Translations under genes and position numbers: made by a program | The notes under the pieces: generated by a model | The model's input: the letters and a program-made list of their open reading frames with translations, nothing else | The model's database searches: none | What the model was told of the DNA's origin: nothing | Shown here: positions 43,498-58,679 of the stretch, piece by piece | Position numbering within the stretch: position 1 is the stretch's first letter | How the letters are laid out: each line of letters begins with the position of its first letter | NCBI GenBank assembly: GCA_965204575.1 | Contig: OZ241993.1 | Coordinates: forward strand, 1,248,001 to 1,312,000 | DNA: 64,000 nucleotides | Source of the DNA: an uncultured candidatus Porisulfidus sp. | Lineage (GTDB): Bacteria; Pseudomonadota; Gammaproteobacteria; Poriferisulfidales; Poriferisulfidaceae | Direction of reading: 5' to 3'

Positions 43498-44454
43498 TCA
43501 GGCCGGTTCGGCGTCGGCCTGGGCATCGAGCCGCATCCGCCCCAGGGCGAGACGCAATTCACCGAACGTCTGTGTCGGGATGATTCGGGTATCGTCGATC
43601 ACCGCCTCGAAAAGATTCAGGTTGGAGCCGTGCAGGAGGATCGGGTGGCCTTCCGGCACGGCACGGCGAAGTTTGCGTAACTCATTCGGAAGCAAAGGAT
43701 CATCGATCGGGTAGGCAGCGATGGCGGTGCACAGGGCCCGGCTGCGTTCCGCTGCGTACGCGATCTCGTCAGCAGACAGCCCCGCTCCAAGGAAGATCGG
43801 CCGCCACCCGTAGGCTCGGGTCGCCACGGCCAAGCGAAGCAGCGGCAGTTCATCGGGTCCGGACAATCCGCCGGCCACGACCACGCGGAAGGCGGAACCG
43901 GTTCCCGGGCGGGTGGCATAGTTCAGCAAGTGGCTGCGGATTACGCCTTCGGCCATGTGCTTCTGCGCCATGCGCAAGGTTCCATTGCGGCATTCGTCTT
44001 GCATGTGCTGGATCAGCGGCGCGATCAGGTCTTCTTGCATGAACAACTCGACCAGGTTCTTCTCGGCGTCACTCAGGGTTTCGGCCAGCTGTTCCGGATT
44101 CATCCTGTCGATTGCCTCGAGGCACCGGTCGAAATATTCCATGACCGCGTCCGTGCGCGGGCGCGAGGAACCGAGGGAAGGCACCAGAACGGCCGCCTGC
44201 TCATCTCCTTCCACCATGGCCTGGAGTTCGGCAGTGGACGCTCGCGCGATGTCGCCGATACGCCGCCCGGCATCGGTGGCACGGGCCAGCAGGCGCAGGC
44301 GCTCGATGTCCTCGTCTCGGTACAATCGGCGCTGATTTCGGGTGCGCGCCGGTTCGACTGCGTGGTAACGGCGCTCCCAGGCGCGGATCAACTCGACGCT
44401 CAGGCCCGAGCGGCGCGCGGCGACCTGGATGGGATGGAGCGGCGATTCGGCCAT
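43498..44454 (-). CDS. MerR-family regulator with CarH/LitR-like architecture and degenerate B12-binding motifs
   Basis: MerR HTH (IRAWERRY...P.RT...RRLY...D..RL); helical domain with AQKH in place of AQEH; Rossmann domain (GW...FLGA.L...I) with GPDELP in place of EXHXXG. Confidence 0.85.
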   Translation of the reverse strand: MAESPLHPIQVAARRSGLSVELIRAWERRYHAVEPARTRNQRRLYRDEDIERLRLLARATDAGRRIGDIARASTAELQAMVEGDEQAAVLVPSLGSSRPRTDAVMEYFDRCLEAIDRMNPEQLAETLSDAEKNLVELFMQEDLIAPLIQHMQDECRNGTLRMAQKHMAEGVIRSHLLNYATRPGTGSAFRVVVAGGLSGPDELPLLRLAVATRAYGWRPIFLGAGLSADEIAYAAERSRALCTAIAAYPIDDPLLPNELRKLRRAVPEGHPILLHGSNLNLFEAVIDDTRIIPTQTFGELRLALGRMRLDAQADAEPA

Positions 44455-44461
44455 GTCAAGT

Positions 44462-44521
44462 TATCCACCTTTTGTACAGGAAAATCCGGGGCAATCCGGT
44501 GTTTCGTACAGCCATTGTACT
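44462..44521. promoter_or_regulatory. Candidate CarH/LitR-type operator (phased TGTACA-like hexamers)
   Basis: TATCCA 44462, TGTACA 44473, CGTACA 44505, TGTACT 44516; spacings 11, 32 and 11 bp. Confidence 0.5.
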
Positions 44522-44622
44522 GGATGCCCTCCTGTCGGCCAACCGGAGGTTGGGATATTTGTGATAGATTAGCCTCAAAAGAATCGTGTCCCCACGATTG
44601 TCAGAATTACTTAGGAGGAGTC

Positions 44623-45765
44623 GTGAAAAAACTGTTTATCAATCTACGCTATTTCCTCGCGCCGCTGCTGATCCTGTCGGCACTGTTCGGGGTTTTGGCA
44701 GGCGGACCGTGGGTCTGGGTCGGAGTCGCCCTGATGGGCGTCGGCATCCTGGTCGATACCACTACGCCACAACGCACCATGGGCGCGGGATTTGACGAAG
44801 AGGGTAACACCTATGGCGTCCCCGCTCTTCAGAACGGTGTCATGTACAGCATGCTGGGCGTTTTTGTCCTGTTGCAGCTGGCCATCTGCTGGCGCATCTA
44901 CCAGTACGTGAATGGCGTCCCGATGGGGACCGGCACTTTCCTGGGCCTGTCCTACCAGGAAGGAATCACCGGGATGGAGTTGGTCGGGGCAGTCGTTTCG
45001 ACCGGCATCTTCGCCGGCATCGGCATCATCTACGGGCACGAGCTGGCGCACACCAAGGGTTTCAGTTTCGTGATCGCCCGCTGGATGATGGGACTGTCTG
45101 GTTCGTCCCATTTCTGCTACGCGCATGTGTACAACCACCATCTGGAATTGGGTTGCGAGGACGATCCCGCAACTTCGCCGCGCGGGCGCAGCCTGTATGC
45201 TCATTTCCCGAAATCCTATTTCGGCCAGAGCAAATTCCTGTATTCGATGGAGAAGCATCGCCTGGAACGTCTGGGCGTGCCGTTCCTGTCTTGGCAGAAC
45301 CGCTGGATTCGTGGCTATGCCATGAGCTTGCCGACGCTCTTCCTGTTCTGGATGGCGGGCGGCTGGCTCGGCATCTGCGCCATGCTGCTGATCTGGATGA
45401 TCTCGAACTTCGAGCTGGAAGCGCTCAACTATCTGGAGCACTATGGGCTGATTCGCGAGAAAGGCCAGCCCATCGACTATCGCCATAGCTGGGACAACAG
45501 CACGGCGTTCACCAGCTGGTTCTTCATTGAGATCGGCCGTCAGGCGGATCACCACGACCGCGGTGAAACCCACTTCTGGGAGCTCGACGAGGTCGGGGCG
45601 CCGAATACGGGAATGGGGTATTTCACCCTGTTCGCATTGGCGTTGGTTCCGCCGGTGTTCCACAAACTCATGGAAATAGAGTTGAAGAAGTGGGACGACA
45701 ACGAAGCCTCCGAAGGCGAGTTGGAAGTCTCCCGCGCGATCAACAAGGTTGCAGGCTACGCATAA
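44623..45765 (+). CDS. Membrane di-iron monooxygenase, AlkB/XylM-like
   Basis: AGGAGG RBS and GTG start; TM helices; His boxes HELAH, HVYNHH, NYLEHYG, RQADHH; DPATSPRG.S.Y motif. Confidence 0.88.
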   Translation: MKKLFINLRYFLAPLLILSALFGVLAGGPWVWVGVALMGVGILVDTTTPQRTMGAGFDEEGNTYGVPALQNGVMYSMLGVFVLLQLAICWRIYQYVNGVPMGTGTFLGLSYQEGITGMELVGAVVSTGIFAGIGIIYGHELAHTKGFSFVIARWMMGLSGSSHFCYAHVYNHHLELGCEDDPATSPRGRSLYAHFPKSYFGQSKFLYSMEKHRLERLGVPFLSWQNRWIRGYAMSLPTLFLFWMAGGWLGICAMLLIWMISNFELEALNYLEHYGLIREKGQPIDYRHSWDNSTAFTSWFFIEIGRQADHHDRGETHFWELDEVGAPNTGMGYFTLFALALVPPVFHKLMEIELKKWDDNEASEGELEVSRAINKVAGYA

Positions 45766-45796
45766 GAGGTCTGAAAACCCCAACCCTATAAAGGAG

Positions 45797-45827
45797 CGCC
45801 CCCTTTCGAGGGGGCGTTTCTTTTTTT
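45797..45827 (+). terminator. Rho-independent terminator
   Basis: CGCCCCCT-TTCG-AGGGGGCG followed by TTTCTTTTTTT. Confidence 0.9.
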
Positions 45828-45853
45828 GGGCAGGCCCTCCGTACAATAGGATC

Positions 45854-46552
45854 ATGAGTGAATTCGGGCAAACCCGCCGGCTGGAAGACCGATTGATCGA
45901 CGATGTCGCGGCCGCAGGGCAGTCGGCACAGCAGCAGCGTCGGTTGACGCTGGAGAAAGAGTTGCGCCGCCCGGACCTCAAGGATTCGGAACGTCTTGAC
46001 GCACAACTGGAACTCTCTGGGATTCTGCTTGATCTCGGCGAGTCCGGGACGGCTTTCGCGATGGCCCGGGAGGTACTGGACGCGGGGATTCGGGCGGAAC
46101 GCTACGAAAGGGCGGCCTCGGCCTGCCGGGTCATGTACCTGAGCGAGCAGCCGGAGTCCACGTCGGCCCTGGGACACGGCCTTTGGCTCGCGCTGGCTTG
46201 CCCGATGGATCTGGATCTGACTTGGCAACTGTTCCGCCATTTGGTAGAGGAGACTCCGGCTCATTCCGATGGCGCGGCCGTGGCTGCGATGCTGGCTTAT
46301 TTCTTGATGGACAAGCGGGCAGCCGGCGCGGAACGCGATCGTCTAATCTTCCTGGCCCAGCAGCAAGTTGCGGAAGTGGCTGAACGCCACCGCGGCATTA
46401 CCAACGATGAGACAATCGGAGTCTGGGTGCAGATGCACGACCTGGACGACGTGGATGTGTTGCTGGAACGGATGGGACGCATCCTCGACGCAATCACGCC
46501 GGACTGGTGGTTCGACCGGGAGGCGGTGCGCGCCCGGTTCGCTTCCGACTGA
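45854..46552 (+). CDS. All-helical hypothetical protein
   Basis: 232-aa ORF with host-like codon usage; ALGHG.WLA, DGAAVAA, WWFDR motifs. Confidence 0.7.
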   Translation: MSEFGQTRRLEDRLIDDVAAAGQSAQQQRRLTLEKELRRPDLKDSERLDAQLELSGILLDLGESGTAFAMAREVLDAGIRAERYERAASACRVMYLSEQPESTSALGHGLWLALACPMDLDLTWQLFRHLVEETPAHSDGAAVAAMLAYFLMDKRAAGAERDRLIFLAQQQVAEVAERHRGITNDETIGVWVQMHDLDDVDVLLERMGRILDAITPDWWFDREAVRARFASD

Positions 46553-46571
46553 TTCCAACCGGTACGGGGTC

Positions 46572-47663
46572 ATGGCATCCGCTGACGATCCTTATGCACG
46601 CCGTATCATCCATATCGACATGGATGCGTTCTATGCGGCGGTCGAGATGCGCGAGGACCCTTCGCTACGAGGTCGCCCCCTGGTCGTCGGCGGTGATCCG
46701 GAACGGCGGGGCACGGTGGCGACATGCAATTACGAGGCCCGAGCCTATGGCATTCACTCGGCAATGGCGAGCCGGACCGCCAAGAAACGATGCCCGGAAG
46801 TCATCTTCATCCGCCCGCGGTTCGACCTGTACCGTGCAGTGTCGGCCGAAATACGTGAAATCTTCCTCCATTACACTCCCAAGGTCGAGCCCTTGTCCCT
46901 GGACGAAGCCTACCTTGACGTGACCGGTTGCCGCCTGTTCGGTGGAATTGCTACTGACATTGCACGCGATATCAAGCGTCGCATCCTGGAGAAAACCCGG
47001 TTGACCGGTTCGGCCGGCGTCTCCTACAACAAGTTCCTGGCCAAAATCGCTTCGGACATGAACAAGCCGGACGGTTTGACCGTGGTGCGCCCGGAGGGTG
47101 GCCCAAAGCTGGTGGCCCGCCTGCCGATCCGAAAGTTCTTCGGGATCGGGCCGGTCACGGCAGCGCGAATGAAGGAATTGGGAATCGAAACCGGAACCGA
47201 TCTCAGGCAGTGGCCGCTGGAACGACTCCAGCCTTTGTTCGGGAAGCATGCCGAGTACTACTACCAGGCGGCGAGGGGGTTGGATTTTCGCGAAGTGGAA
47301 CCGGGTCGTCCTCGAAAGTCGGTAGGCTCGGAGACGACGTTCGTGCAGGATATTCAGGATTTGGAGGAAATGCTGAAGGCGCTCAAGTTGCGGGCGCGCG
47401 AGGTGGCGCTGGATCTGCAGGAAAAGCGGTTAACCGGGAAGACAGTTACGGTGAAAGTCAAGTTCAGCAATTTTACGCAGGTCACCCGGAGCCATTCGTT
47501 CGATCGGCCATTGACTTCGTATCGACAGATGGCAGATGTCCTGCCGGATTTGTTGCGCCGGGCCGCACAACCGGGTCACGCAGTGCGCCTGCTCGGGGTG
47601 ACGGTTTCGAACTTGGTTCCGCATTCCGATGAAGAAGGGCCGGTGCAGCGTAGCCTTTTGTAG
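46572..47663 (+). CDS. dinB: DNA polymerase IV
   Basis: IIHIDMDAFYA.VE, YEAR.YG..SAM, SLDEAYLD, KFLAKIASD.NKPDG, RLLGV. Confidence 0.97.
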   Translation: MASADDPYARRIIHIDMDAFYAAVEMREDPSLRGRPLVVGGDPERRGTVATCNYEARAYGIHSAMASRTAKKRCPEVIFIRPRFDLYRAVSAEIREIFLHYTPKVEPLSLDEAYLDVTGCRLFGGIATDIARDIKRRILEKTRLTGSAGVSYNKFLAKIASDMNKPDGLTVVRPEGGPKLVARLPIRKFFGIGPVTAARMKELGIETGTDLRQWPLERLQPLFGKHAEYYYQAARGLDFREVEPGRPRKSVGSETTFVQDIQDLEEMLKALKLRAREVALDLQEKRLTGKTVTVKVKFSNFTQVTRSHSFDRPLTSYRQMADVLPDLLRRAAQPGHAVRLLGVTVSNLVPHSDEEGPVQRSLL

Positions 47664-47841
47664 GGGCGTATATGGAAGTTGAGAGTTGAGGGTTTTCACG
47701 GCTCTGTTGTGGAAATCCGTGCTAGAGTAAATCACCATGCACCGAGCCTTCCGCTTGAGTCAAGTCAGGCCAGGCTTGGCAGGGTCATGCGCGATCGCAG
47801 AATTTAAAAGCAAGCGGACAAGAAAGGACGCGAGCAACAGA

Positions 47842-50160
47842 ATGCCACCACGCGAAACCCCACGGCCTGGAATACTGAAAAAAGTCACAGCGGCTGATCT
47901 TGGTTTTGTCGAACTCCCGGCACTAACGCCGCATCTTGAATTCCGCCTCATTGAAGAAGGGCAGGTGCTGTTGGTTTCCGAAACCTTCAATACATTGCTC
48001 CGCGAAAAGGTTCACACGGACCTCTTGCCGCTCCTCGACGGACACCATTCGCATCATGACATTGCCGAGACCCTGGCCGGAGCGTATTCGGAATCCGAAA
48101 TTCAAACCGCCATTGCTTCTTTGGTCGCGAGAGGGTATGTCGTTTCCGGCAACCACCTCATGGAACGAGGGCAAGCAGCATTCTGGTCCTCGCTGGGTGT
48201 CTCTCCCCGATGGGCCGAGGGGCGTTTGGCGGCGGCGAAAGTGGAAGTTGCCGGCGATGATGACCAGCTCGCTCGCAGGCTAGATGCTCTGGGCATAGCC
48301 GTGGGCACCGACCATCCGGCTCTTTCGGTCATTGTTTGCGAGGATTATCTCGACGATCAGCATGCCGGGATCAATCAACGCCACCTTGCGTCCGGCGAGC
48401 CGTGGATGTTGGCGCAACCGAAAGGCATTCGGCCTTTATTCGGCCCGGTATTCCGGCCCTCGGAGCAAGGCCCATGCTGGGCCTGCCTGACCTATCGCAT
48501 GCGCGGCCATCAAGAGGTCCATAATTTCCTGCGCAACCTTGCTGGAGAGGATGCGGCTTTTTCGCCTTTTGCCGCTGAATCCTCCGTCCTGGATTCGGTG
48601 TATGGACTGATTGCTGTCGAGATCGCCAAGTGGGTGGTGCTTGAGGAAATGGCTCCCCTCCATGAACAGGCGATTTCGTTCGACACTGCTCGCCTGAGCA
48701 GCGAATACCATCCGGTCATGCGCCGGCCTCAGTGTTTCGCATGCGGGGAGGAGGCGCTCTATCGCGCGGACCGGCCGCCCGTTCCGGTGCAGCTGCGATC
48801 AAGCCCGAAAAACATATGTAACAGTGGAGGGGCGCGTTCGGTTTCTCCAGAAGAGACTCTTGCCCGATATCGCCATCTGGTCAGTCCGGTCAGTGGGGTC
48901 GTTTCATGGGTCACGCGAATCACGGATGAAACAGACCCTTGGTTGCATGTACATTGGGCGGGGAGCAATTTCGCGCTGCAAAGCATGAAATTGAGTTCAT
49001 TGCGGCGCAGTTTGCGGAGCAAGAGCGCGGGCAAGGGCAGCACGCCGAAGCAATCCGAGGCAAGCGCTCTCTGTGAGGCGGTCGAACGCTACTGCGGTGC
49101 CTTTCACGGAGATGAGATTTGCTGTCAAAGGCGGTTCTCGGAGTTTTCTCAGGCTGGGGAATCAGAAGCGGTCCACCCGAACGATGTCCAGTTGTTCAGC
49201 GATTGGCAACTGGATCATGCTGAGGAAATTGATGCCGAGGGTCACCCCTGCAATGTTGTTCCATCGCGTTTCGACCCCGGTGCGAAGCTTGGTTGGTCGC
49301 CGGTATGGTCGCTGACCGAGGGCCGGCACCGATACCTGCCGACATCAATGCTCTACAGCATGCCCAGTGAACATCAAGAGCGTTCGGGGCTTAAAGCGGA
49401 TTCGAACGGGTGCGCCGCCGGGAACACCCTGGAAGAAGCCATCTTGCAGGGATTTTTCGAACTGGTTGAACGCGATGCTTTTGCCATTTGGTGGTACAAC
49501 CGGCTGCATTTGCCTGGAGTAAACCTGGAGAGTTTCAATGATGACTACTTGGCGTGCGCGTGTGACCGCTATCGAGACTTTCATCGCGAGTTGTGGGTGC
49601 TGGACGTGACCAACGATCTTGGCATTCCCGTCTTCGTCGCCGTCTCCCGCAGAATCGACAAGGATGAGGAAGATATCATCTATGCGGCCGGGGCGCATAC
49701 AGACCCGCACATTGCTGCTCTACGCGCGGTGTGTGAGTTGAATCAATTTCTGAACTTGATCCAGGGAAGGAGACAGGCCTCCGCAAGTGTGGCAGTCAAT
49801 GACCCGACATGCCGCTGGTGGTGGAAGAATGCAAGGCTGGCGGACCATTCCTACCTCGCGCCAGCTTCCGCCGTCAAGCCAAAGGGGAAGGCGGATTATT
49901 CCGTTCCCGACACCACGGACATAAAAGAGGATGTGGAGCAATGCCGTGCGGTGGTCGAATCCAAAGGCATGGAGTTCTTGGTGCTCGATCAGACACGACC
50001 CGATATCGGGATGTCCGTGGTGCGGGTCATTGTGCCTGGCCTGCGCCACTTTTGGCCACGTTATGCCCCAGGGCGCTTGTTCGAAGTGCCGGTTGGGATG
50101 AAATGGCGTGAGAACCCGATTACGGAAGCGGAAGTCAACCCCGCCCCGGTCATTGTCTGA
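47842..50160 (+). CDS. Fused leader-binding/E1-like + YcaO cyclodehydratase (TOMM C-D fusion)
   Basis: N-terminal RRE/ocin-ThiF-like part with GP.F.P...CWAC and RRPQCFAC; YcaO motifs GKG...SAL.EAVER and SNGCAAGNTLEEAILQGFFELVERDA; Pro-rich C-terminus (NPAPVIV) typical of azoline-forming YcaO. Start could be further upstream (47737). Confidence 0.93.
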   Translation: MPPRETPRPGILKKVTAADLGFVELPALTPHLEFRLIEEGQVLLVSETFNTLLREKVHTDLLPLLDGHHSHHDIAETLAGAYSESEIQTAIASLVARGYVVSGNHLMERGQAAFWSSLGVSPRWAEGRLAAAKVEVAGDDDQLARRLDALGIAVGTDHPALSVIVCEDYLDDQHAGINQRHLASGEPWMLAQPKGIRPLFGPVFRPSEQGPCWACLTYRMRGHQEVHNFLRNLAGEDAAFSPFAAESSVLDSVYGLIAVEIAKWVVLEEMAPLHEQAISFDTARLSSEYHPVMRRPQCFACGEEALYRADRPPVPVQLRSSPKNICNSGGARSVSPEETLARYRHLVSPVSGVVSWVTRITDETDPWLHVHWAGSNFALQSMKLSSLRRSLRSKSAGKGSTPKQSEASALCEAVERYCGAFHGDEICCQRRFSEFSQAGESEAVHPNDVQLFSDWQLDHAEEIDAEGHPCNVVPSRFDPGAKLGWSPVWSLTEGRHRYLPTSMLYSMPSEHQERSGLKADSNGCAAGNTLEEAILQGFFELVERDAFAIWWYNRLHLPGVNLESFNDDYLACACDRYRDFHRELWVLDVTNDLGIPVFVAVSRRIDKDEEDIIYAAGAHTDPHIAALRAVCELNQFLNLIQGRRQASASVAVNDPTCRWWWKNARLADHSYLAPASAVKPKGKADYSVPDTTDIKEDVEQCRAVVESKGMEFLVLDQTRPDIGMSVVRVIVPGLRHFWPRYAPGRLFEVPVGMKWRENPITEAEVNPAPVIV

Positions 50161-50526
50161 TCTGTCGATATTGACGTCATAAAAACAATACCGGGCTACC
50201 GAAGGGGACCTTCATCAAGAGCAGGCTCCACGGGATGATTTCCTGAGCGGCTTCAGAAGCCGTTCGCTACCCCAGTTGATTGGTGATCCGGGTCGGGAAG
50301 GAATCCTGAGGCGCGTTAGCGGGCTTCCCATCACCATGGCGGCACGGTTTAGCTGGGCGGAATCCCCGGCACCAGCAATGTCCTGCTGGGGTCAAACCAC
50401 TCACAAAGACAGAGGCTCGGGCGCCAGTGGCCGACTTCCAGAACGGGAAGCGCATCTGGATATTGATTTATTTTTCGGGGTGATTTTTTTATGCGAAAGC
50501 CTGAAGTGCCACCACATTAACCATAG

Positions 50527-50556
50527 ATGGCGCAGAGAGATTACTTTCTGCGCCAT
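50527..50556. terminator. Hairpin downstream of the precursor gene
   Basis: ATGGCGCAGA-N10-TCTGCGCCAT perfect 10-bp stem. Confidence 0.55.
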
Positions 50557-50618
50557 TAAGTATGTGTTCCACCGAAGAGCTTGAAACTAACTGAACACCC
50601 CTAAGCAGTCGAGTTTAA

Positions 50619-50894
50619 TTACGTGCAGAAAAGAACCCCTGCAGCAATCATCTCCAACTGTTCCTCGCTCAGTTCGGGACCGGCTGGCAATGACAGATGA
50701 AATGTGTTTGCATCGTTTTGATGCACCACGATTGTCAAACTTTCTGGCAATTCCACACCGAACTCGTCAGCAATCACAGTTTTCGGGTCGGAGATGAGTT
50801 GCTGGCGAAAGCCAGCATCCTCTATTGCGCGATCTGTTAAATGCTGACGCATTTGATCAGCCCTTTCGGCTATTGCTTCGTACAACTCTTCCAT
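50619..50894 (-). CDS. NHLP-leader (proteusin-type) RiPP precursor, predicted core VLFCT
   Basis: RA.ED..FRQQL..DPK.VI..EFGVELP..L.I.VH......HL.LP...ELSEEQLEMIAAG leader, then VLFCT-stop; GAGGGA RBS before MEELY. Confidence 0.9.
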   Translation of the reverse strand: MEELYEAIAERADQMRQHLTDRAIEDAGFRQQLISDPKTVIADEFGVELPESLTIVVHQNDANTFHLSLPAGPELSEEQLEMIAAGVLFCT

Positions 50895-50918
50895 ATTGAT
50901 TCCCTCGCTAGTTGTAAT

Positions 50919-50932
50919 CCACATGCATGTGG
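50919..50932. promoter_or_regulatory. Perfect 14-bp palindrome upstream of the RiPP precursor
   Basis: CCACATGCATGTGG, starting 25 bp upstream of the precursor ATG. Confidence 0.35.
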
Positions 50933-51071
50933 GTTGATTCAAGTATAGCAAGACTTGTAGGGAACTCGTTCGAATGTGCGGGTTCATGTGCACGTGCTAG
51001 ACCCGTCCCGATATGCGTCTCTATGTTAGACTTGCGGCAATCATTTTCCAGAGGTTTTTCCTTTCCTCAAG

Positions 51072-51998
51072 ATGCCTGATCGCCTGACCCTAGCTGCGCT
51101 CATCGCGTTGTTGCTCGTCCTGTTGGCGGGCTCCATTTCCGTCTCCCAAAGACCGGCACCGTTTTCGGAAGGTGTCTTTTGGCAGGTGAGCAAGGACGGC
51201 GAGATCGTCGGGCACATTCTCGGCACCATCCACAGCAATGACGAACGCGTCACGCGGATTCCGGAACGGGTCATGGACGTGTTTACGAAATCATCAGCCT
51301 ATGCCATTGAGGCGTTTCCCGGGAGTGAACTGTGGAACCCCTACCATGGGCTTCAGAATATTCGTGGCCGCATGATGCTGCCGGGCAAGCAGACACTTGC
51401 GGAGGTCGCCGGTGAGGAACTGGCGAAGAAGGTGTATACGATTCTCAAGAGCAATTACGTCGATGAGGAATTTGCACGCCGCGTAAAACCGTGGGCCGCG
51501 ATCCACAGTCTCGCCATTAAGTCAGAGCACCAAGGACCGATCGTGGATCAGAAGCTCCTGGACCTGGCGGTGCTGCAGGACAAGGAGTTGTATCAAATCG
51601 AGAGTCCGGAAGAGTTGCTGGCTGCGTTCTATGCAATGCCGATGGATTCGCAGGTCTCGTTGCTGAAAGACAAGTTGCGGGCCTTTCCAGAGATGCGCAA
51701 TACCATGGAAGACATCGTTCTGGCCTACGGGCGCGAAGACCTGCAGGCCATGATGGACCTGTCGACGGACTTTATTGACAAGGACCCGGACAAACGGAAA
51801 CATTATGAGATGTATGTCAAGCATGCCATCGATATTCGAAGCATTGTGATGACGCACTACATGGGCGCAGCGTTTCGCGAGGGCAATGCGTTCATTGCCG
51901 TCGGGGCCTTGCATTTGTATGGAAAGAACGGAGTGCTGGCGTTGCTTGGCCAAGAATTCTACGGCCAATACGAAGTGGAACGAATCCTGATCAAGTAA
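51072..51998 (+). CDS. TraB/GumN (Tiki-like) family secreted protein
   Basis: Signal/TM N-terminus; W.V...GHILGTIH, VDQ.L, IES.EE, FIAVGALHL.G..GVL.LL. Confidence 0.85.
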   Translation: MPDRLTLAALIALLLVLLAGSISVSQRPAPFSEGVFWQVSKDGEIVGHILGTIHSNDERVTRIPERVMDVFTKSSAYAIEAFPGSELWNPYHGLQNIRGRMMLPGKQTLAEVAGEELAKKVYTILKSNYVDEEFARRVKPWAAIHSLAIKSEHQGPIVDQKLLDLAVLQDKELYQIESPEELLAAFYAMPMDSQVSLLKDKLRAFPEMRNTMEDIVLAYGREDLQAMMDLSTDFIDKDPDKRKHYEMYVKHAIDIRSIVMTHYMGAAFREGNAFIAVGALHLYGKNGVLALLGQEFYGQYEVERILIK

Positions 51999-52065
51999 CC
52001 CGCCTGGCCCCGCTGCCGCGGAACAAGCCGGTCTCCATTACACGTTCGGTGACGGGGTGCTTCCC

Positions 52066-52758
52066 TCAACTGCGTCCGTAAACCGGCACGACGGCGCCGT
52101 TGATGGATTTGCTGGATGGATTGGCGAGATGGATGATGGCTGCGGCGAGGTCCTCGGGTGGCACCCACTTTGAATGATCCGCATTGGGCATGTCGGAGCG
52201 ATTTCGAGGAGTGTCAATGGTGCCGGGCAGGATGCAGTTGGCCGTGATTCCGGTTTCGGCGCATTCCAGGGCAATCACTTCCGTCAGGGTGACCACGGCC
52301 GCTTTCGAGACACAGTAGGGAGCCATTCGCGCCCCCGGCTTGCGCACGGCGCGGGCCCCCACGTTGATGATGCGACCGAAATCCGCCTCCCGCATGATCG
52401 GCAGGGCGTACTTGCAGGCCAGCCAGGCGGTGACGGCATTAATCCGAAACATGTCGGCCCAATCGTCCAGGGTGGTTTCTTCGACTTTCGGTCCCATCGC
52501 GAAGCCGCCCGCAATGTTGGCGAGGATATCGATGCGGCCATGTTGCTGGTGGATTGCACTGAAAGTTTCACGCACGGAGGACTCGTCGGTCAGGTCGCAG
52601 GCATGAGCTGCGGAACTTGGCACGTCTTCCAATCGCTTGGCATCGCGGTCCACGGCAACGGTGGTGGCGCCACATTCTCCGAAACGACGGACTGTAGCTT
52701 GGCCCAACACCCCAGCGGCTCCGGTGACGACAGCGATGTGGTCGGTAAAGAGGTTCAT
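52066..52758 (-). CDS. Short-chain dehydrogenase/reductase
   Basis: VTGAAGVLG, N.AGG, YCVSK (YxxxK), PGTIDTP.N. Confidence 0.92.
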   Translation of the reverse strand: MNLFTDHIAVVTGAAGVLGQATVRRFGECGATTVAVDRDAKRLEDVPSSAAHACDLTDESSVRETFSAIHQQHGRIDILANIAGGFAMGPKVEETTLDDWADMFRINAVTAWLACKYALPIMREADFGRIINVGARAVRKPGARMAPYCVSKAAVVTLTEVIALECAETGITANCILPGTIDTPRNRSDMPNADHSKWVPPEDLAAAIIHLANPSSKSINGAVVPVYGRS

Positions 52759-52783
52759 GGACAGACCGTACGTAGCGGCAGGT

Positions 52784-54472
52784 TCATTGTAGGGCCCAGC
52801 CGGGGATTTCGCCCAACAGGCCGAAGACCCAATGGCCAAGGCTAAAGACCAGTGTAGTCAGTATGACGACCGACAGGATGTCGAGCCAGACTCCGGCGAT
52901 GACCATCTTGATGATCGGAACTCGTCGCGAACCGTAGACGATGGCATTGGGCGGGGTGGAAATCGGCAGCATGAATGCGCAAGAGGCAGCCAAGGCCGTT
53001 GGGATCAGCAACAACAGGGGATGCACCTCGATGCCTTGCGCGAGGCTGGCCATGATCGGGATGGCCGTGGAGGTGGTGGCCGTGTTGGAGGTCAGTTCGG
53101 TCAGGCTGGTGATGAAGCCAATCGTGCTCATCACAACCACAAGAGAACTACTGTCGTGCAGCAGGATCTCAAACTGTTGGGCCGCCCAAGCAGACAGGCC
53201 GGATACGCCGAACCCCTTGGCCAAGGCCAAGCCCCCTCCGAACAGGATCAGCACGCCCCAGGGGACCTTGTTCAGGTCATCTGTGTCCAGCAATCGGCCA
53301 TGGGTCGATTTGGCGGGAAGCGCGAACAGGAGAAGAGCCATGGCGATGGCGACCGTGCTGTCGTCGACCATCGGGCCAACGGCGGCAATGTCGAACCGGG
53401 CCAGAAACAGATCCAGGTAATGGCTCCAGCCGAAGATATCGACATCGCTGCCGAACAGGTATTTCTTGCGGGTGAACCAGAGAGCGATCAGGGTGGCAAA
53501 GACCGCTAAAACTCTTTTCTCCTCGGGGCTCATCGGTCCGAGCTCCCGGTGCTGCCGGGCAATCAGGTCGCCGCCGCTGAACTGGCCGGTGGGGGGCAGG
53601 GGGAAGACCAAGCGGGTCAGCAGGAACCATGCGCACCCCAGAAACAAGAGTGAGAAAGGCATGGCCATCATTGACCAGGAAGCGAACGAAATGGAAGGCG
53701 CCTGGGGGTATAGCTGTTCGAACTGGGCGACCAGAATGGCGTTGGGCGGCGTGCCCGTCAGGGTGGCCATGCCGCCGATGGAGGCGGCATACGCAAGCCC
53801 CAGCAGCAGGGCAAAGGAAAAGTTCCTTTCGCGGGGATGCGGAGAGGTGTCGGCGGCTCCCTGGGTGGCATGGAACTCCTCGCGGAACAGAACGACAGAC
53901 AACGCGATCGGAAGCAACATCATGGTGGTGGCAGTATTGGAAAGCCACATCGAGAGAAGGGCGGCTGCCAGCATGAATCCAAGCACGAGTGCGTCGAGCC
54001 GGTCGCCCATGATGCGCAGGATGTTCAGCGCAATTCGCTTGTGCAGATTCCATTTCTGCACGGAGATCGCAACCAGGAACCCGCCCAGCAGAAGAAAAGT
54101 GACCCAGCTCATGTACTGGGTGACCACGTTATGGAGACTGATACTCAGGTCGCCGGGGACCAGGCCGCCGCCCAGCGCGGCATCTCCGAAATCAACCTTC
54201 CCCGAGACATCGGTGTAGCGGCCCCGCATGATGCCCATGGCCGGGAACAGCACCAGCGGCATCAGGGCGGTCGCGGCGATCGGGATGGCTTCGCTGACCC
54301 ACCAGATGGCCATCCAGGCGGTGATGGCCACCATGCGGGTGACCATCGGATTTCCGGGATCGAGGTCCGTGAAGGCGAGAATCAGGACGAATGCCAGCGG
54401 TCCGAGCCATAGCCCGATCCGGTTGCGCAGGGTGACCGGCCCGTCGTCATGCCATGTGGGGCGAGCGAACAT
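52784..54472 (-). CDS. SLC13/DASS Na+:dicarboxylate/sulfate symporter
   Basis: W..EAIP...T, LHKRIAL, SNTAT twice, GTPPNA, AFMLP.STPPNA. Confidence 0.92.
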   Translation of the reverse strand: MFARPTWHDDGPVTLRNRIGLWLGPLAFVLILAFTDLDPGNPMVTRMVAITAWMAIWWVSEAIPIAATALMPLVLFPAMGIMRGRYTDVSGKVDFGDAALGGGLVPGDLSISLHNVVTQYMSWVTFLLLGGFLVAISVQKWNLHKRIALNILRIMGDRLDALVLGFMLAAALLSMWLSNTATTMMLLPIALSVVLFREEFHATQGAADTSPHPRERNFSFALLLGLAYAASIGGMATLTGTPPNAILVAQFEQLYPQAPSISFASWSMMAMPFSLLFLGCAWFLLTRLVFPLPPTGQFSGGDLIARQHRELGPMSPEEKRVLAVFATLIALWFTRKKYLFGSDVDIFGWSHYLDLFLARFDIAAVGPMVDDSTVAIAMALLLFALPAKSTHGRLLDTDDLNKVPWGVLILFGGGLALAKGFGVSGLSAWAAQQFEILLHDSSSLVVVMSTIGFITSLTELTSNTATTSTAIPIMASLAQGIEVHPLLLLIPTALAASCAFMLPISTPPNAIVYGSRRVPIIKMVIAGVWLDILSVVILTTLVFSLGHWVFGLLGEIPGWALQ

Positions 54473-54487
54473 AGGGTAGGTTCCGAC

Positions 54488-54516
54488 AAAAAGCGCACGC
54501 GGGAATGGCGTGCGCT
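54488..54516 (-). terminator. Rho-independent terminator of nrdAB
   Basis: AGCGCACGC/GCGTGCGCT stem followed on the minus strand by a U-run. Confidence 0.8.
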
Positions 54517-54537
54517 AGGATGAGACTCAACTGTTGG

Positions 54538-55731
54538 TCAGTCCCAACTGAGTGCCCCCCCGGTCTGGTATTCGGTCACCCGGGTTTCGAAAAAGTTCTT
54601 TTCCTTCTTCAGATCCAGGGTTTCCGACATCCACTGAAACGGGTTCTGCGCGCCGGGGAATTGCGCGGGCAGGCCGACTTGGGCGAGCCTGCGATTGGCA
54701 ATGAACTTGACGTAGTCCTCGAATACAGGAGCGTTCATCCCCAGGATGCCGCGCGGCATGGTGTCGTAGGCGTAGGCGATTTCCAATTCCACGCCTTCCA
54801 TGATCAGGTCGATCATCTGTTGCTGGAATTCTCCGGACCACAACTGCGGATTTTCGATCTTGATCTGGTTGATGACGTCGATCCCGAAATTCATATGCAT
54901 GGACTCGTCACGCAGGATGTATTGGAACTGTTCGGCAACGCCGGTCAACTTGTTTCGGCGGCCCATCGACAGGATCTGCGAGAACCCCACGTAGAAGAAA
55001 ATTCCCTCGAAGACCACGTAGAACGCGATCAGGTCGCGCAACAGGCGCTGGTCGTTCTCAAAAGTCCCGGTCTGGAAGTTCGGGTCGCCCAGGCTCTGGG
55101 TGAAGGGAAGCGCCCACTCCGCCTTGCGTGCCACGGACGGCAGTTCGCGGTACATGTTGAAGACTTCGCCTTGGTCCAGGCCCAGCGATTCGACGCAGTA
55201 TTGGTAGGCATGGGTGTGAATGGCCTCTTCGAATGCCTGGCGAAGCAGGTATTGCCGGCATTCCGGGTTGGTGATGTGGCGGTATACGGCCAGCACCAGG
55301 TTGTTGGCGACCAGCGAATCGGCGGTGGAGAAGAATCCGAGGTTGCGCATGACGATCATGCGTTCGTCCTCGGTCAGGCCGTCCGGGTTCTTCCACAACT
55401 CGATGTCCGCGGTCATGTTGATTTCCTGCGGCATCCAGTGATTGTTGCAGGCGGCCAGGTATTTCTCCCAGGCCCAGGTGTACTTGAAGGGAACCAGTTG
55501 ATTCAGGTCGGCACGGCAGTTGATGATCTGTTTGTCATCGACCTGGATACGGGCCGCGCCCATCTCCAGGGTTTCCAGGCCAGTGGCCCCGGCGCCGGTT
55601 TCGGCAGGGGGTGTTTCCGTGACGGCCGGAGCCTCGGGCAGGCGGGGTTCCAGGGCGAGGTCGGCGGCTGGCGGTGGGGAGCTCGACGGGGAGAGCGGAT
55701 CGTCCCAGGCGGTAGGAGTCATGGATGTCAT
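54538..55731 (-). CDS. nrdB: Class Ia ribonucleotide reductase beta subunit
   Basis: [15 protein letters not shown] (radical Tyr), [22 protein letters not shown]; Pro/Ala-rich N-terminal extension. Confidence 0.96.
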
Positions 55732-55757
55732 AGTGATCCTCCTTGTCGGTTCGGGGA

Positions 55758-58679
55758 CTACTGGCAAGCCTCGCAGTCTTCGTCCATGGAGCAGAACGGA
55801 GTCGCGTTTTCGCCGGTGTCCGGGGCGGTCGCATTCGCGGCGACCGCGTTGAGTTGACTGCGCTCGTCGCCGGTGCTTTTCTCGACGTGCGTGGCACCGA
55901 GCGAGCGCAGGTAGTAAGTGGTCTTCAGGCCGCGTACCCAAGCCAACTTGTACAGGTTGTCAAGGTCGCGCCCGGAAGGCGTGGCCATGTAGAGGTTCAG
56001 CGATTGCGCTTGGTCAATCCATTTCTGTCGGCGCGAAGCGGCCTCCACCAGCCAGCGCGGATCCAGCTCGAATGCCGTGATGTACAGCTGCTTGATCTCG
56101 TCCGGGATGCGGGCGATGTCCTGGATGCCGCCGTTGTAATGCTTGAGATCGTTGATCATCACGTCGTCCCACAGGTCTTCCTTCTTGAGGTCGCGCACCA
56201 GGTACAGGTTGATGACCGTGAATTCGCCGGACAGGTTGGACTTCACGAACAGGTTCTGGTAAGTGGGTTCGATGCTTTGCGTCACGCCGGTGATATTGGA
56301 GATGGTGGCGGTCGGCGCGATGGCCATCGTGTTGGAGTTGCGGATGCCGAGGCGCACTTTTTCGCGCAGGGCGTCCCAGTCCATCGTAGTATCGGCATTG
56401 ACCTGGTAGAACCGTTCGCCGCCGCGCGTCCGGCGGACCCGCTCAATTGAATCGATGGGCAGGATTCCTTCGGACCATAGCGAGCCTTGGAAGCTCGGAT
56501 AAGCGCCGCGTTCCTGAGCCAAGTCGGCAGACGCGTCAATGGCGAAGTAGCTGACCGCTTCCATGGATCGATCAGCAAAATCGATCGCCTCATCGCTGGC
56601 GTAGGGGATACGCAACTGGTACAGCGCGTCCTGGAACCCCATCAGGCCCAAGCCGACCGGGCGGTGGAGCAGGTTGGAACGGCGCGCCTTGGCGACGCTG
56701 TAGTAGTTGTAGTCGATCACGTTGTCCAGCATGCGCATGGCGGTCCGCACGGTGCGCTCGAGTTTTTCCATCATCAGGCCGTTTTCGTCGACGTGGGCCG
56801 CGAGATTGATGGAACCGAGGTTGCACACGGCGATCTCGTCGTCGGAGGTGTTGAGCGTGATTTCGGTGCACAGGTTGGACGAATGGATGACGCCATGGTG
56901 CTGCTGCGGGGAGCGTAGGTTGCAGACGTCCTTGAAGGTGATCCAGGGATGGCCGGTCTCGTAGAGCATGCCCAGCATCTTGCGCCACAGGTCCCCGGCG
57001 CGGACTGTCTTGAAGTTCGAGATCTGTCCGTTTGCCGCCATCGCTTCGTATTGGGCGTAGCGGGTTTCGAACTCTTCGCCGATCAAGTCATGCAGGTCGG
57101 CTGTGTCACTTGGGCTGAAGAGGGTCCAGTCTCCATCGTCGGCGACGCGTTTCATGAACAGGTCCGGAACCCAGTTGGCCGTGTTCATGTCGTGCGTGCG
57201 CCGCCGGTCGTCGCCGGTGTTCTTGCGCAGTTCTAGGAATTCCTCGATGTCCAGGTGCCAGGTTTCGAGATACGCGCACATGGCGCCCTTGCGCTTGCCG
57301 CCCTGGTTGACGGCGACGGCCGTGTCATTGGCCACCTTGAGGAACGGCACCACGCCTTGGGAGCGGCCGTTGGTGCCCTTGATGTGCGAGCCCATGGCGC
57401 GGATCCGGGTCCAGTCGTTGCCAAGGCCGCCAGCGAATTTGGACAGCATGGCGTCGTCCTTGATGGAACTGAAGATGCCGTCCAGATCGTCTGGCACGGT
57501 GGTCAGGTAGCACGAGGACAGTTGCGGGCGCAGGGTGCCGGAGTTGAACAAGGTCGGAGTCGAACTCATGAAGTCGAAGGTCGACAGCAGGTTGTAGAAC
57601 TCGATGGTCCGGGCCTCCCGGTCCACTTCGGGGCCGGCAAGGCCCATGGCCACGCGCATAAAAAAGGCCTGAGGCATTTCGAAACGGGTGCTGTTCGAGT
57701 GTATGAAGTAGCGGTCATACAATGTCTGCAGGCCAAGGTAGGTGAATTGCATATCCCGCTCCGGCACGATGGCGGCCGCGAGTTTTTCTAGGTCGTATTC
57801 CTGACCCAGATGCGGGCTGAGCAGTTCGAGTGAGGTGCCGCGGCGGATGTAGCGGGGGAAGTAGTCGGCGTAGTCGACCGTCATCTTCACGCCCTGCGTC
57901 TGCACGGGCGCGTCATAGACGAATCCCGTTGCTTCCTGGTGCAGGCTGTGCAGCAGCAGACGCGCCGCGACAAACGTGTAATTCGGTTCCTTCTCGATCA
58001 GGCTGCGGGTGCTGATCGTCAGCTGGCGGTCGACCTCGGCCTCGGGGACGCCGTCATACAGGTTTCGGCAGGCCTCCTCCACGACAGGGCCGGGCTCGAC
58101 GTCATCAATGTCCCGGCAGGCTTCCTCGGCAAGCTTGCGCAGGCGCTCCGTGTCCAGCGGGCGCAGGGAACCATCGGCTGCCTTGACTTGAAGGGGGGTG
58201 GCGGGCCGCTCCTCGGTGCTTTTCTCTCCCGCCTCTTTCTCGGCACGTTCGCGGGCGCGTTCCTCCCGGTACAGCACGTACCTCCGGGCCACCTTGTGGT
58301 GGCCTCCACGCATCAGGGCCAGTTCAACATGATCCTGGATATCCTCGATATGGAACGTGCCGTTTTCCGGATGACTGCGGGTCAACGCATGGACGGTCTG
58401 CCGGGTGAGGTCGTCGACGACGCGATGGATCCGGCTGGAGGCGGCGGCAGTCCCGCCCTCGACCGCGAGGAAAGCCTTGGTAATGGCCACCCGGATCTTC
58501 GACTCGTCGAACGGCGTCAACTGCCGGTTACGTCGGATGACCCGGTACTTTCCAGGGGCGGTGGTTTGCAGGCTGGCCTCGGTGGGGGCGCTCGAACGTG
58601 GCGCGCCAGTGGCAATGCTCGGCTTGCCGGCGGAAGGCTGTTCGGAGGCGGCTTCGTCGGGGGTGGCTTCGGTGGTCAT
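55758..58679 (-). CDS. nrdA: Class Ia ribonucleotide reductase alpha subunit with two ATP-cones
   Basis: [30 protein letters not shown]-terminal CxxxxxCxxC. Confidence 0.97.

Follow-up and report, generated by a model that had tools for sequence, protein, structure and literature searches.

A convergent pair of genes, encoding a fused YcaO cyclodehydratase and an NHLP precursor peptide, lies in a 64,000-nt stretch of an uncultured candidatus Porisulfidus sp. (contig OZ241993.1 of assembly GCA_965204575.1, positions 1,248,001 to 1,312,000), the whole of which is called the window below. The locus is a deletion-reduced descendant of an srp-like, LCCC-motif proteusin cluster of sponge-associated bacteria. 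Comparison with relatives makes us lean, with some confidence, towards a living but stripped YcaO/NHLP pair. A sequence-only reading of this DNA had described a minimal two-gene islet for a peptide made by ribosomes and modified after its translation (RiPP) and had put it forward as an undescribed system. Profile matches to both proteins bear out the gene-level part of that description. The minimality is not an original design: it arose by deletion from a same-site cluster of ~17-18 kb, as junctions and a pseudogene stub document. Nor is the system undescribed, its family being widespread (of the 8000 candidates scored, 1562 are homologous to the YcaO at E ≤ 1e-50) and LCCC-motif clusters having been reported from sponge metagenome-assembled genomes (MAGs) in the available part of PMC11832590. 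What is new is the deletion-derived pair; its parent cluster family is already known from sponge symbionts. The elements of the pair are as follows.

47842-50160, forward strand: fused cyclodehydratase (winged helix-turn-helix (wHTH)/RiPP recognition element (RRE), E1-like leader-binding domain and YcaO domain), from profile and PDB matches
50619-50894, reverse strand: NHLP precursor, 91 aa in its ATG form, convergent with the YcaO gene
50637-50894, reverse strand: NHLP leader, residues 1-86, with TIGR03793 match, L(X)4L motif and Ala-Gly
50622-50636, reverse strand: core VLFCT, residues 87-91, followed by the stop codon at 50619-50621

The site of the pair has a conserved backbone in the genus, hyp267-dinB-[island]-TraB/GumN-SDR, in which TraB and SDR are each present in 16/16 genomes. 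The YcaO gene was found in 12 of the 15 other same-genus genomes and in three of the four genomes of one sister-family genus, and was not found in the remaining 41 relatives searched. Where it is missing within the genus (G004, G007 and G010), dinB directly adjoins TraB; in 11 of the 12 carriers, partner and/or transporter genes have homologues in the fetched stretch around YcaO as well. The full island was seen in the stretches around the YcaO gene of G001, G002, G003, G005, G008, G009, G011 and G012 and in the metagenome locus L065, and measures ~17-18 kb where both ends were seen, vs ~3.35 kb in the window. It holds a FAD_binding_4 oxidase (in most), a ~820-aa fatty-acid-desaturase/GlnE-like fusion, an MMPL transporter, the YcaO gene, a gene for a 369-aa protein directly after it (the partner gene), a methyltransferase, the precursor, HlyD, a C39-ABC exporter and a second ABC gene. 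Rearranged or split versions occur in G013, G014 and G015. The window enzyme is 64-83% identical to the same-site YcaO genes of genomes with cores LSCCL, LSCCV, LCCCL, LCCCT and LCCC. The edges of the island in the window are formed by two backbone genes outside the system.

46569-47663, forward strand: dinB (DNA polymerase IV), left edge of the island
51072-51998, forward strand: TraB/PrgY/GumN-family gene, right edge of the island

Alignment by blastn with the corresponding locus of G011 (L019) divides the window into three matching blocks: 46632-47664 (dinB) corresponds to L019 12999-11967, 47761-50343 (YcaO and the opening ~185 bp of the partner gene) to L019 5090-2511, and 50504-50986 (the precursor with its flanks) to L019 521-43. 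The sequence upstream of TraB resumes at ~51018. Three junctions and the remnant of one gene are thereby delimited.

47664-47761, no strand assigned: junction 1, dinB/YcaO; ~6.9 kb of G011 missing, with the FAD_binding_4 oxidase, the desaturase fusion and MMPL
50171-50343, forward strand: dead stub of the 369-aa partner gene, just after the YcaO stop, with ~the first 58 of 369 codons remaining
50344-50503, no strand assigned: junction 2 filler; ~2.0 kb of G011 missing, with the rest of the partner gene and the methyltransferase
50987-51017, no strand assigned: junction 3, between the upstream flank of the precursor and the sequence upstream of TraB; missing are HlyD, the C39-ABC exporter and the second ABC gene

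The stub at 50171-50343, which the sequence-only reading had overlooked, has lost its start codon, carries a TAA at codon 4 and ceases to be homologous at 50343. A profile built from 16 partner proteins matches the stub alone in the genome (model positions 4-62 of 371, with one TAA), and an intact 369-aa partner elsewhere in the genome was rejected on this ground. The junction 2 filler showed no blastn homology to any related locus compared, and no traces of the other lost genes were detected in the junctions (tblastn at E ≤ 0.01, blastn on the fillers). In the YcaO tree, the window enzyme forms a 100/100 clade with two metagenomic YcaOs, P0021 and P0022 (95% and 86% identical to it), and this clade is nested among full-cluster lineages; the reduced state is therefore derived.

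The enzyme itself is complete. Its open reading frame (ORF) covers 47737-50160 (+) when read from the first ATG (807 aa), or 772 aa when read from the ATG at 47842. The whole PF02624 (YcaO) model is covered in the Pfam search (E 6.5e-97), which also places the wHTH domain PF21084 at residues 64-135; among NCBIfam models, TIGR03604 scores 266.5 bits against a cut-off of 219.25 and the leader-binding domain of thiazole/oxazole-modified microcin (TOMM) enzymes, TIGR03882, is above cut-off at residues 222-389. YcaO and leader-binding domains on one chain, as present here, are a feature of azoline-forming fused cyclodehydratases of the TOMM SagD type. PDB searches align LynD (4v1t, E 4e-162) near end-to-end over query residues 27-770, TruD (4bs9, E 2.4e-158) over almost its full length, and the oxazole-pathway enzyme MusD (7u58) with E 1.7e-152. 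Both acidic nucleotide/Mg motifs, whose residues we take to be those that bind ATP, are the same in 20 relatives and in the LynD alignment, and the Pro-rich C-terminus (...NPAPVIV) is family-typical among the same 20 relatives. The fused leader-binding/E1-YcaO architecture, intact motifs and Pro-rich C-terminus proposed from sequence alone thus hold up in the Pfam, NCBIfam, PDB and alignment data, and the three profiles suggested for checking all match (TIGR03793, PF02624 and TIGR03882, the first and last above cut-off). From its family, ATP-dependent cyclodehydration of the core Cys is the likely activity of this enzyme.

The precursor is equally well formed. The 91-aa frame is nested in a 124-aa GTG ORF (50619-50993, -), and its ATG is preceded by a Shine-Dalgarno sequence, GAGGGA, 7 nt upstream. 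TIGR03793 matches residues 14-86 with 65.3 bits against a cut-off of 50.9 (NCBIfam) and PF02979 is found with E 7.3e-08 (Pfam). The leader ends ...LSEEQLEMIAAG and is followed by the core VLFCT; its L(X)4L motif reads L75-S-E-E-Q-L80 and is followed by the spacer E-M-I-A, by A85-G86 and then by the core. Motif and boundary columns are ≥90% conserved among 20 sequences. An L(X)4L at -12 to -7 and a Gly-type boundary are described for the MprE7 and SrpE leaders in the available portions of PMC10858898 and PMC12455567, and the window leader agrees with this description in both L75-L80 and the four-residue spacer.

The 19 database homologues of the precursor, ~91 aa each except for two fragments, share the leader end EEQLEMIAAG and have the cores VLFCT, AIFCT, VLFCCT (two), IYFCI, VFFCM, LSCCL/V/I, LCCCV, LCCCGI and RCCC, to which the genome loci add LCCCL, LCCCT, LCCCI, LRCCI, LCCC, RCCC and LTCCGC. 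Core length is 3-6 residues in all 19 and in all related loci, and VLFCT is therefore not the truncation of a longer peptide; the short pentapeptide core seen from sequence alone is genuine. In the survey of short xxxC(T/S) cores proposed at the same time, the sole invariant core residue in the family is the Cys matching C90, and the final position holds T, I, M, L or V where it is filled at all. VLFCT as a string was not found in the literature searched, a scope outside which supplements and the original srp study lie, and six related cores searched in the same way returned only unrelated papers among the matches listed.

Gene absences could be scored genome-wide, the genome being a single contig of 1.82 Mb with 98.75% completeness. 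It contains one NHLP and one YcaO gene. No SagB-type dehydrogenase and no C39 peptidase were detected anywhere in it, and no Trp halogenase (PF04820) scored above cut-off, the best match scoring 18.5 bits and covering no more than the first 43 positions of the model. The closest ABC matches are an MsbA-LpxK fusion and a 697-aa ABC protein without a C39 domain. Whole-genome searches for a C39 peptidase, a SagB dehydrogenase, a halogenase or a further NHLP or YcaO gene outside the locus gave no candidate. The missing azoline dehydrogenase, halogenase and C39 peptidase-transporter, noted earlier for the neighbourhood of the pair, are thus missing from the whole genome, and the proposed search for further NHLP precursors, a dehydrogenase and a peptidase found none. 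The TraB/PrgY/GumN gene was also considered as a substitute leader protease or islet member and rejected: it occurs in 16/16 genomes (72-95% identity), including the three without YcaO, and, since it adjoins dinB where the island is absent, it is not part of the islet.

Evidence that the remaining pair outlived its cluster comes from substitution rates, computed with NG86 against G011 and, for branch values, with G001 as outgroup and bootstrap ranges. Codon-position identities to G011 (positions 1/2/3) are 0.89/0.92/0.66 for YcaO and 0.85/0.94/0.55 for the leader, vs 0.72/0.71/0.64 for the stub, the same 58 codons of which have 0.86/0.95/0.78 in intact relatives. At position 2 the stub retains 41/58 identities and YcaO 717/776 (Fisher p 3.6e-6). 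The ratio of nonsynonymous to synonymous rates (omega, dN/dS) of YcaO against G011 is 0.12, and on the window branch dN is 0.060, dS 0.435 and omega 0.14 (bootstrap 0.10-0.20). Over codon positions 1+2, the branch length of the stub is 0.33 (0.20-0.50) vs 0.063 for YcaO; the stub thus accumulated changes at roughly three quarters of the window branch's synonymous rate, which indicates that it was dead for most of that branch, YcaO and leader meanwhile remaining constrained. The 772 and 91 codons of the pair are free of stops and frameshifts, and the window leader retains all family-invariant residues. Among database records, six precursor clusters 84-95% identical to the window precursor have conserved leaders and the cores VLFCT, AIFCT, VLFCCT (two), IYFCI and VFFCM, and YcaOs of the P0021/P0022 type (95% and 86% identity) occur in other assemblies. 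Because the stub drifted neutrally as YcaO and leader stayed constrained, upkeep of the pair seems to have continued beyond the losses, and the pair appears from these comparisons to have been kept under purifying selection after the partner gene died.

Several observations weigh against a pair that is still at work. Three of the 15 relatives (G004, G007 and G010) do without the island, and the cluster is therefore dispensable. The precursor has a dN on the window branch ~10x that of G011 (0.125 vs 0.013), and the dN of the window YcaO branch is about twice that of G011 when close outgroups are used. At otherwise invariant columns, the window YcaO shows five singleton changes vs one or two in close relatives; the five are conservative and three are common to the 95% identical relative. 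A precursor of the same subclade, P0002 (90% identical, from another assembly), has Ser-Arg in place of Ala-Gly before its AIFCT core, as expected if a double-glycine peptidase no longer acts in the P0002 lineage. The dating of partner-gene death is based on 58 codons and covers the loss of the partner gene only, not that of the exporter. Finally, since no C39 peptidase was detected in the genome and the nearest ABC matches have no such domain, the canonical mature product cannot be made.

An alternative is an inert relic that makes nothing useful, with genes still open for lack of time since the last deletions and a locus heading for the empty dinB-TraB state. No peptidase, exporter or tailoring genes are left, a pseudogene stub adjoins YcaO, the site is empty in G004, G007 and G010, two of the three Cys of an ancestral-type core are gone, and YcaO and precursor are mildly accelerated. 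Against it stand the branch omega of YcaO (0.14, 0.10-0.20) next to a stub that ran at about three quarters of the synonymous rate on the same branch, a leader with all family-invariant residues and a position-2 identity of 0.94, the 772 and 91 codons without stops or frameshifts, and intact relatives, 84-95% identical, in other assemblies. We consider a relic unlikely, if still a serious contender. An active pair agrees better with the purifying selection that apparently persisted after the death of the partner gene, and for this reason we hold that the pair probably still acts. How it might do so without a canonical peptidase is more speculative: an end product that is either the whole 91-aa protein, kept in the cell with its leader attached and a thiazoline at its C-terminus, or a peptide that matures non-canonically, with the pair kept by selection, is a tentative proposal to which we give a rather low probability. 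If true, a RiPP precursor would have become a modified protein acting inside the symbiont, not a secreted natural product.

The sequence-only reading had gone further and suggested an autonomous minimal system that frees a Val-Leu-Phe-thiazoline-(methyl)oxazoline pentapeptide, possibly a metal binder. Enzyme and precursor are indeed intact, and the kinship with MusD (7u58, oxazole pathway) means that the family does not exclude Thr chemistry. The (methyl)oxazoline finds no comparative support, however: the terminal residue is T, I, M, L, V or absent, so that Thr does not qualify as a conserved site of modification; the genome yielded no leader peptidase or exporter to release a core; the minimal state came about by deletion; and the proteusin YcaO MprC favours Cys over Ser/Thr, according to the accessible text of PMC12455567. 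We regard a freed bis-heterocycle as highly improbable. Hardly less improbable is completion in trans, by an unrelated protease or transporter of the cell or after lysis by full-cluster neighbours in the sponge consortium. Leader cleavage by C39-ABC proteins is coupled to export out of the producing cell, which speaks against such completion, and no candidate protease or transporter was identified in the genome. On the other side, precursor and YcaO are separated in some relatives (15 kb apart in G015, and far from each other in G013), and the family is spread over many co-resident taxa as far as the available parts of PMC11832590 and bioRxiv 2023.06.09.544420 go.

The losses and the chemistry proposed for the pair can be put together as follows. 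Three deletions in the window lineage took away the exporter with its C39 leader peptidase, HlyD and the methyltransferase, along with the MMPL transporter, the desaturase/GlnE-like fusion and the greater part of the 369-aa partner gene, and the core went from Cys-Cys(-Cys) to the single Cys of VLFCT. In the present pair, the L(X)4L of the leader would dock on the RRE domain of the enzyme, the YcaO domain would phosphorylate the Phe89-Cys90 amide using ATP, and the Cys90 thiol would close onto the Phe89 carbonyl to give one thiazoline (-18 Da). The ring would presumably remain an azoline, because no dehydrogenase is present in the genome. One thiazoline at Cys90 is the likely product chemistry; cyclisation of Thr91 is unsupported because the last core residue varies (T/I/M/L/V).

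Four groups of known systems are close enough for comparison. The srp (sponge-derived RiPP proteusin) clusters consist, in the portions available of PMC10858898, PMC10286304 and bioRxiv 2023.06.09.544420, of the precursor SrpE, the YcaO SrpC and the brominase SrpI, with an LCCCW core that receives three thiazolines from SrpC and a Trp bromination from SrpI. Measured against these partial descriptions, the likeness lies in an NHLP leader with an L-x-EEQL recognition stretch and a boundary of the Gly type, in a core of five residues, in a fused YcaO (which in srp converts core Cys to thiazolines) and in the sponge microbiome setting. The window differs from the srp clusters so described in its core (VLFCT, with one Cys and no C-terminal Trp, vs LCCCW), in having no halogenase above cut-off in the genome, hence no SrpI-type brominase, and in having no transport or peptidase genes in the cluster. 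The earlier suggestion of a variant of the srp proteusins with another core and without halogenase is thus well founded, with PF04820 below cut-off genome-wide.

The LCCC-motif proteusin biosynthetic gene clusters of mesophotic sponge MAGs are the second group. In the part of PMC11832590 available, these consistently combine a YcaO and a precursor with a pair of transporter genes and several unknown genes, and the LCCC motif is conserved, a description that the clusters of the window's relatives fit, with MMPL and C39-ABC/HlyD as the transporters and an LCCC-type core. YcaO and leader of the window are orthologous to those of the relatives' LCCC-type clusters; relative to that same partial description, transporters, unknown genes and the contiguous-Cys LCCC motif are all gone from the window, which is left with a single Cys. 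LynD and TruD (4v1t, 4bs9) share with the window enzyme the three-domain architecture, a near-full-length alignment and identical acidic motifs, whereas the window substrate has a long folded NHLP leader vs the short cyanobactin leader, and the window has neither PatA/PatG-type proteases nor macrocyclisation. In the methanotroph Mpr system (MprC/MprD/MprE), as far as described in the accessible parts of PMC12455567 and PMC10286304, an RRE-bearing YcaO acts on NHLP precursors via L(X)4L, and a single-Cys test core received one thiazoline. The combination of a YcaO with RRE and an NHLP precursor with L(X)4L is found in the window as well; by the same sources, Mpr differs in having the FMN azoline oxidase MprD and ten precursors, vs no oxidase found and one precursor in the window genome.

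The parent cluster is found well beyond the genus. A metagenome scan returned five loci, one of them close, and that one has the full cluster and an LSCCL core, and the gene set also stands beside precursors of the RCCC/LCCC type in MAGs of Arenicellales, Paracoccaceae/Boseongicola and other Gammaproteobacteria. Among named records, the closest precursors belong to MAGs that bear the titles uncultured candidatus Porisulfidus sp., Chromatiales or Gammaproteobacteria; Porisulfidus is counted among the known sponge symbionts in the available part of PMC12988363.

Two conserved members of the full cluster are of special interest. The 369-aa partner directly follows YcaO in full clusters, at times in two copies (L020:6877-8052 (-), L019:1574-2683 (-), L022:10358-11467 (+) and 13 more), and the invariant residues of its 16-member alignment include a His-His pair. 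Its family is large, with 1486 representative clusters at E ≤ 0.001 and 166 at E ≤ 1e-30. In Pfam searches, two members had no family at E ≤ 0.001, no match improved on E 0.076 in any of the 16/16 members, and none of ten distant homologues (0/10) matched; NCBIfam gave 0 matches and the PDB profile search 0 at E ≤ 10. Its probable role is that of a RiPP tailoring or partner enzyme, as yet uncharacterised. The second is the ~820-aa fusion of a membrane fatty-acid desaturase and a GlnE-like nucleotidyltransferase (L020:13137-15611 (-), L022:5311-7767 (+), homologues in L043-L050), which accompanies YcaO and precursor, together with the MMPL transporter, in several bacterial orders, a co-occurrence that points to unexplored chemistry in the parent cluster, possibly lipid-linked or oxidative.

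The parent RiPP family is on record, in the portions of the literature available, as among the most widespread and most highly transcribed in sponge microbiomes. SrpC is described as difficult to handle in the accessible text of PMC10286304. The window pair offers the simplest experimental handle on the YcaO of this family: a single precursor with a single Cys, for which a single change of -18 Da is expected. If the pair has been maintained after the loss of export and tailoring, some function of the peptide would need no secretion, which bears on why symbionts keep such peptides. The real unknowns of the system are the conserved members of the full cluster, namely the 369-aa family and the desaturase/GlnE-like fusion.

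As to base composition, the lower GC attributed to the islet from sequence alone holds in part. The precursor (0.486) is the only element clearly low, and the YcaO dip is weak (0.575 vs a genome value of 0.602, sd 0.052, with 24% of 2.3-kb genome windows lower), the flanking TraB gene being low too (0.547). Low GC as a mark of recent foreign origin was set aside as weak. Rfam returned 0 matches in 44000-56000, and the promoter/terminator scan gave nothing exceeding shuffled sequence.

Some further features of the genome and its relatives are recorded here. Upstream of dinB, a 267-aa protein without Pfam or NCBIfam match (45749-46552, +) adjoins dinB in all genus loci examined, the island-free ones included. 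Next to it, an AlkB-like gene of the fatty-acid-desaturase family (PF00487; 44600-45765, +) is contained in a spuriously long 611-aa ORF and is the genome's only homologue, a weak one (28% identity), of the cluster desaturase fusion. The MsbA-LpxK frame (L070, G000:C1:1550229-1553081) is an open frame of 950 aa in which LpxK (lipid A 4'-kinase) is joined to an MsbA-like ABC exporter, which may reflect either a natural fusion or the reading-through of two genes.

Between the window and G005 (L023), dS is 0.41 for dinB (46632-47660) and 1.87 for YcaO (47827-50157), a contrast which indicates that island and backbone have different histories and suggests that islands have been swapped between lineages by recombination. 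One genus member, G013, has three YcaO paralogues (G013:C1:1082494-1089778, L028, and G013:C1:798461-800782, L027), two of them adjacent and beside three weak NHLP-like ORFs, and its LCCCL precursor stands alone beside dinB, far from any YcaO. In G006, a divergent YcaO (51% identical) is accompanied by an NHLP-like precursor with a long Gly/Ser/Thr/Cys-rich core (L031, G006:C1:1334824-1353136), and this locus is a different azoline-peptide type within the genus.

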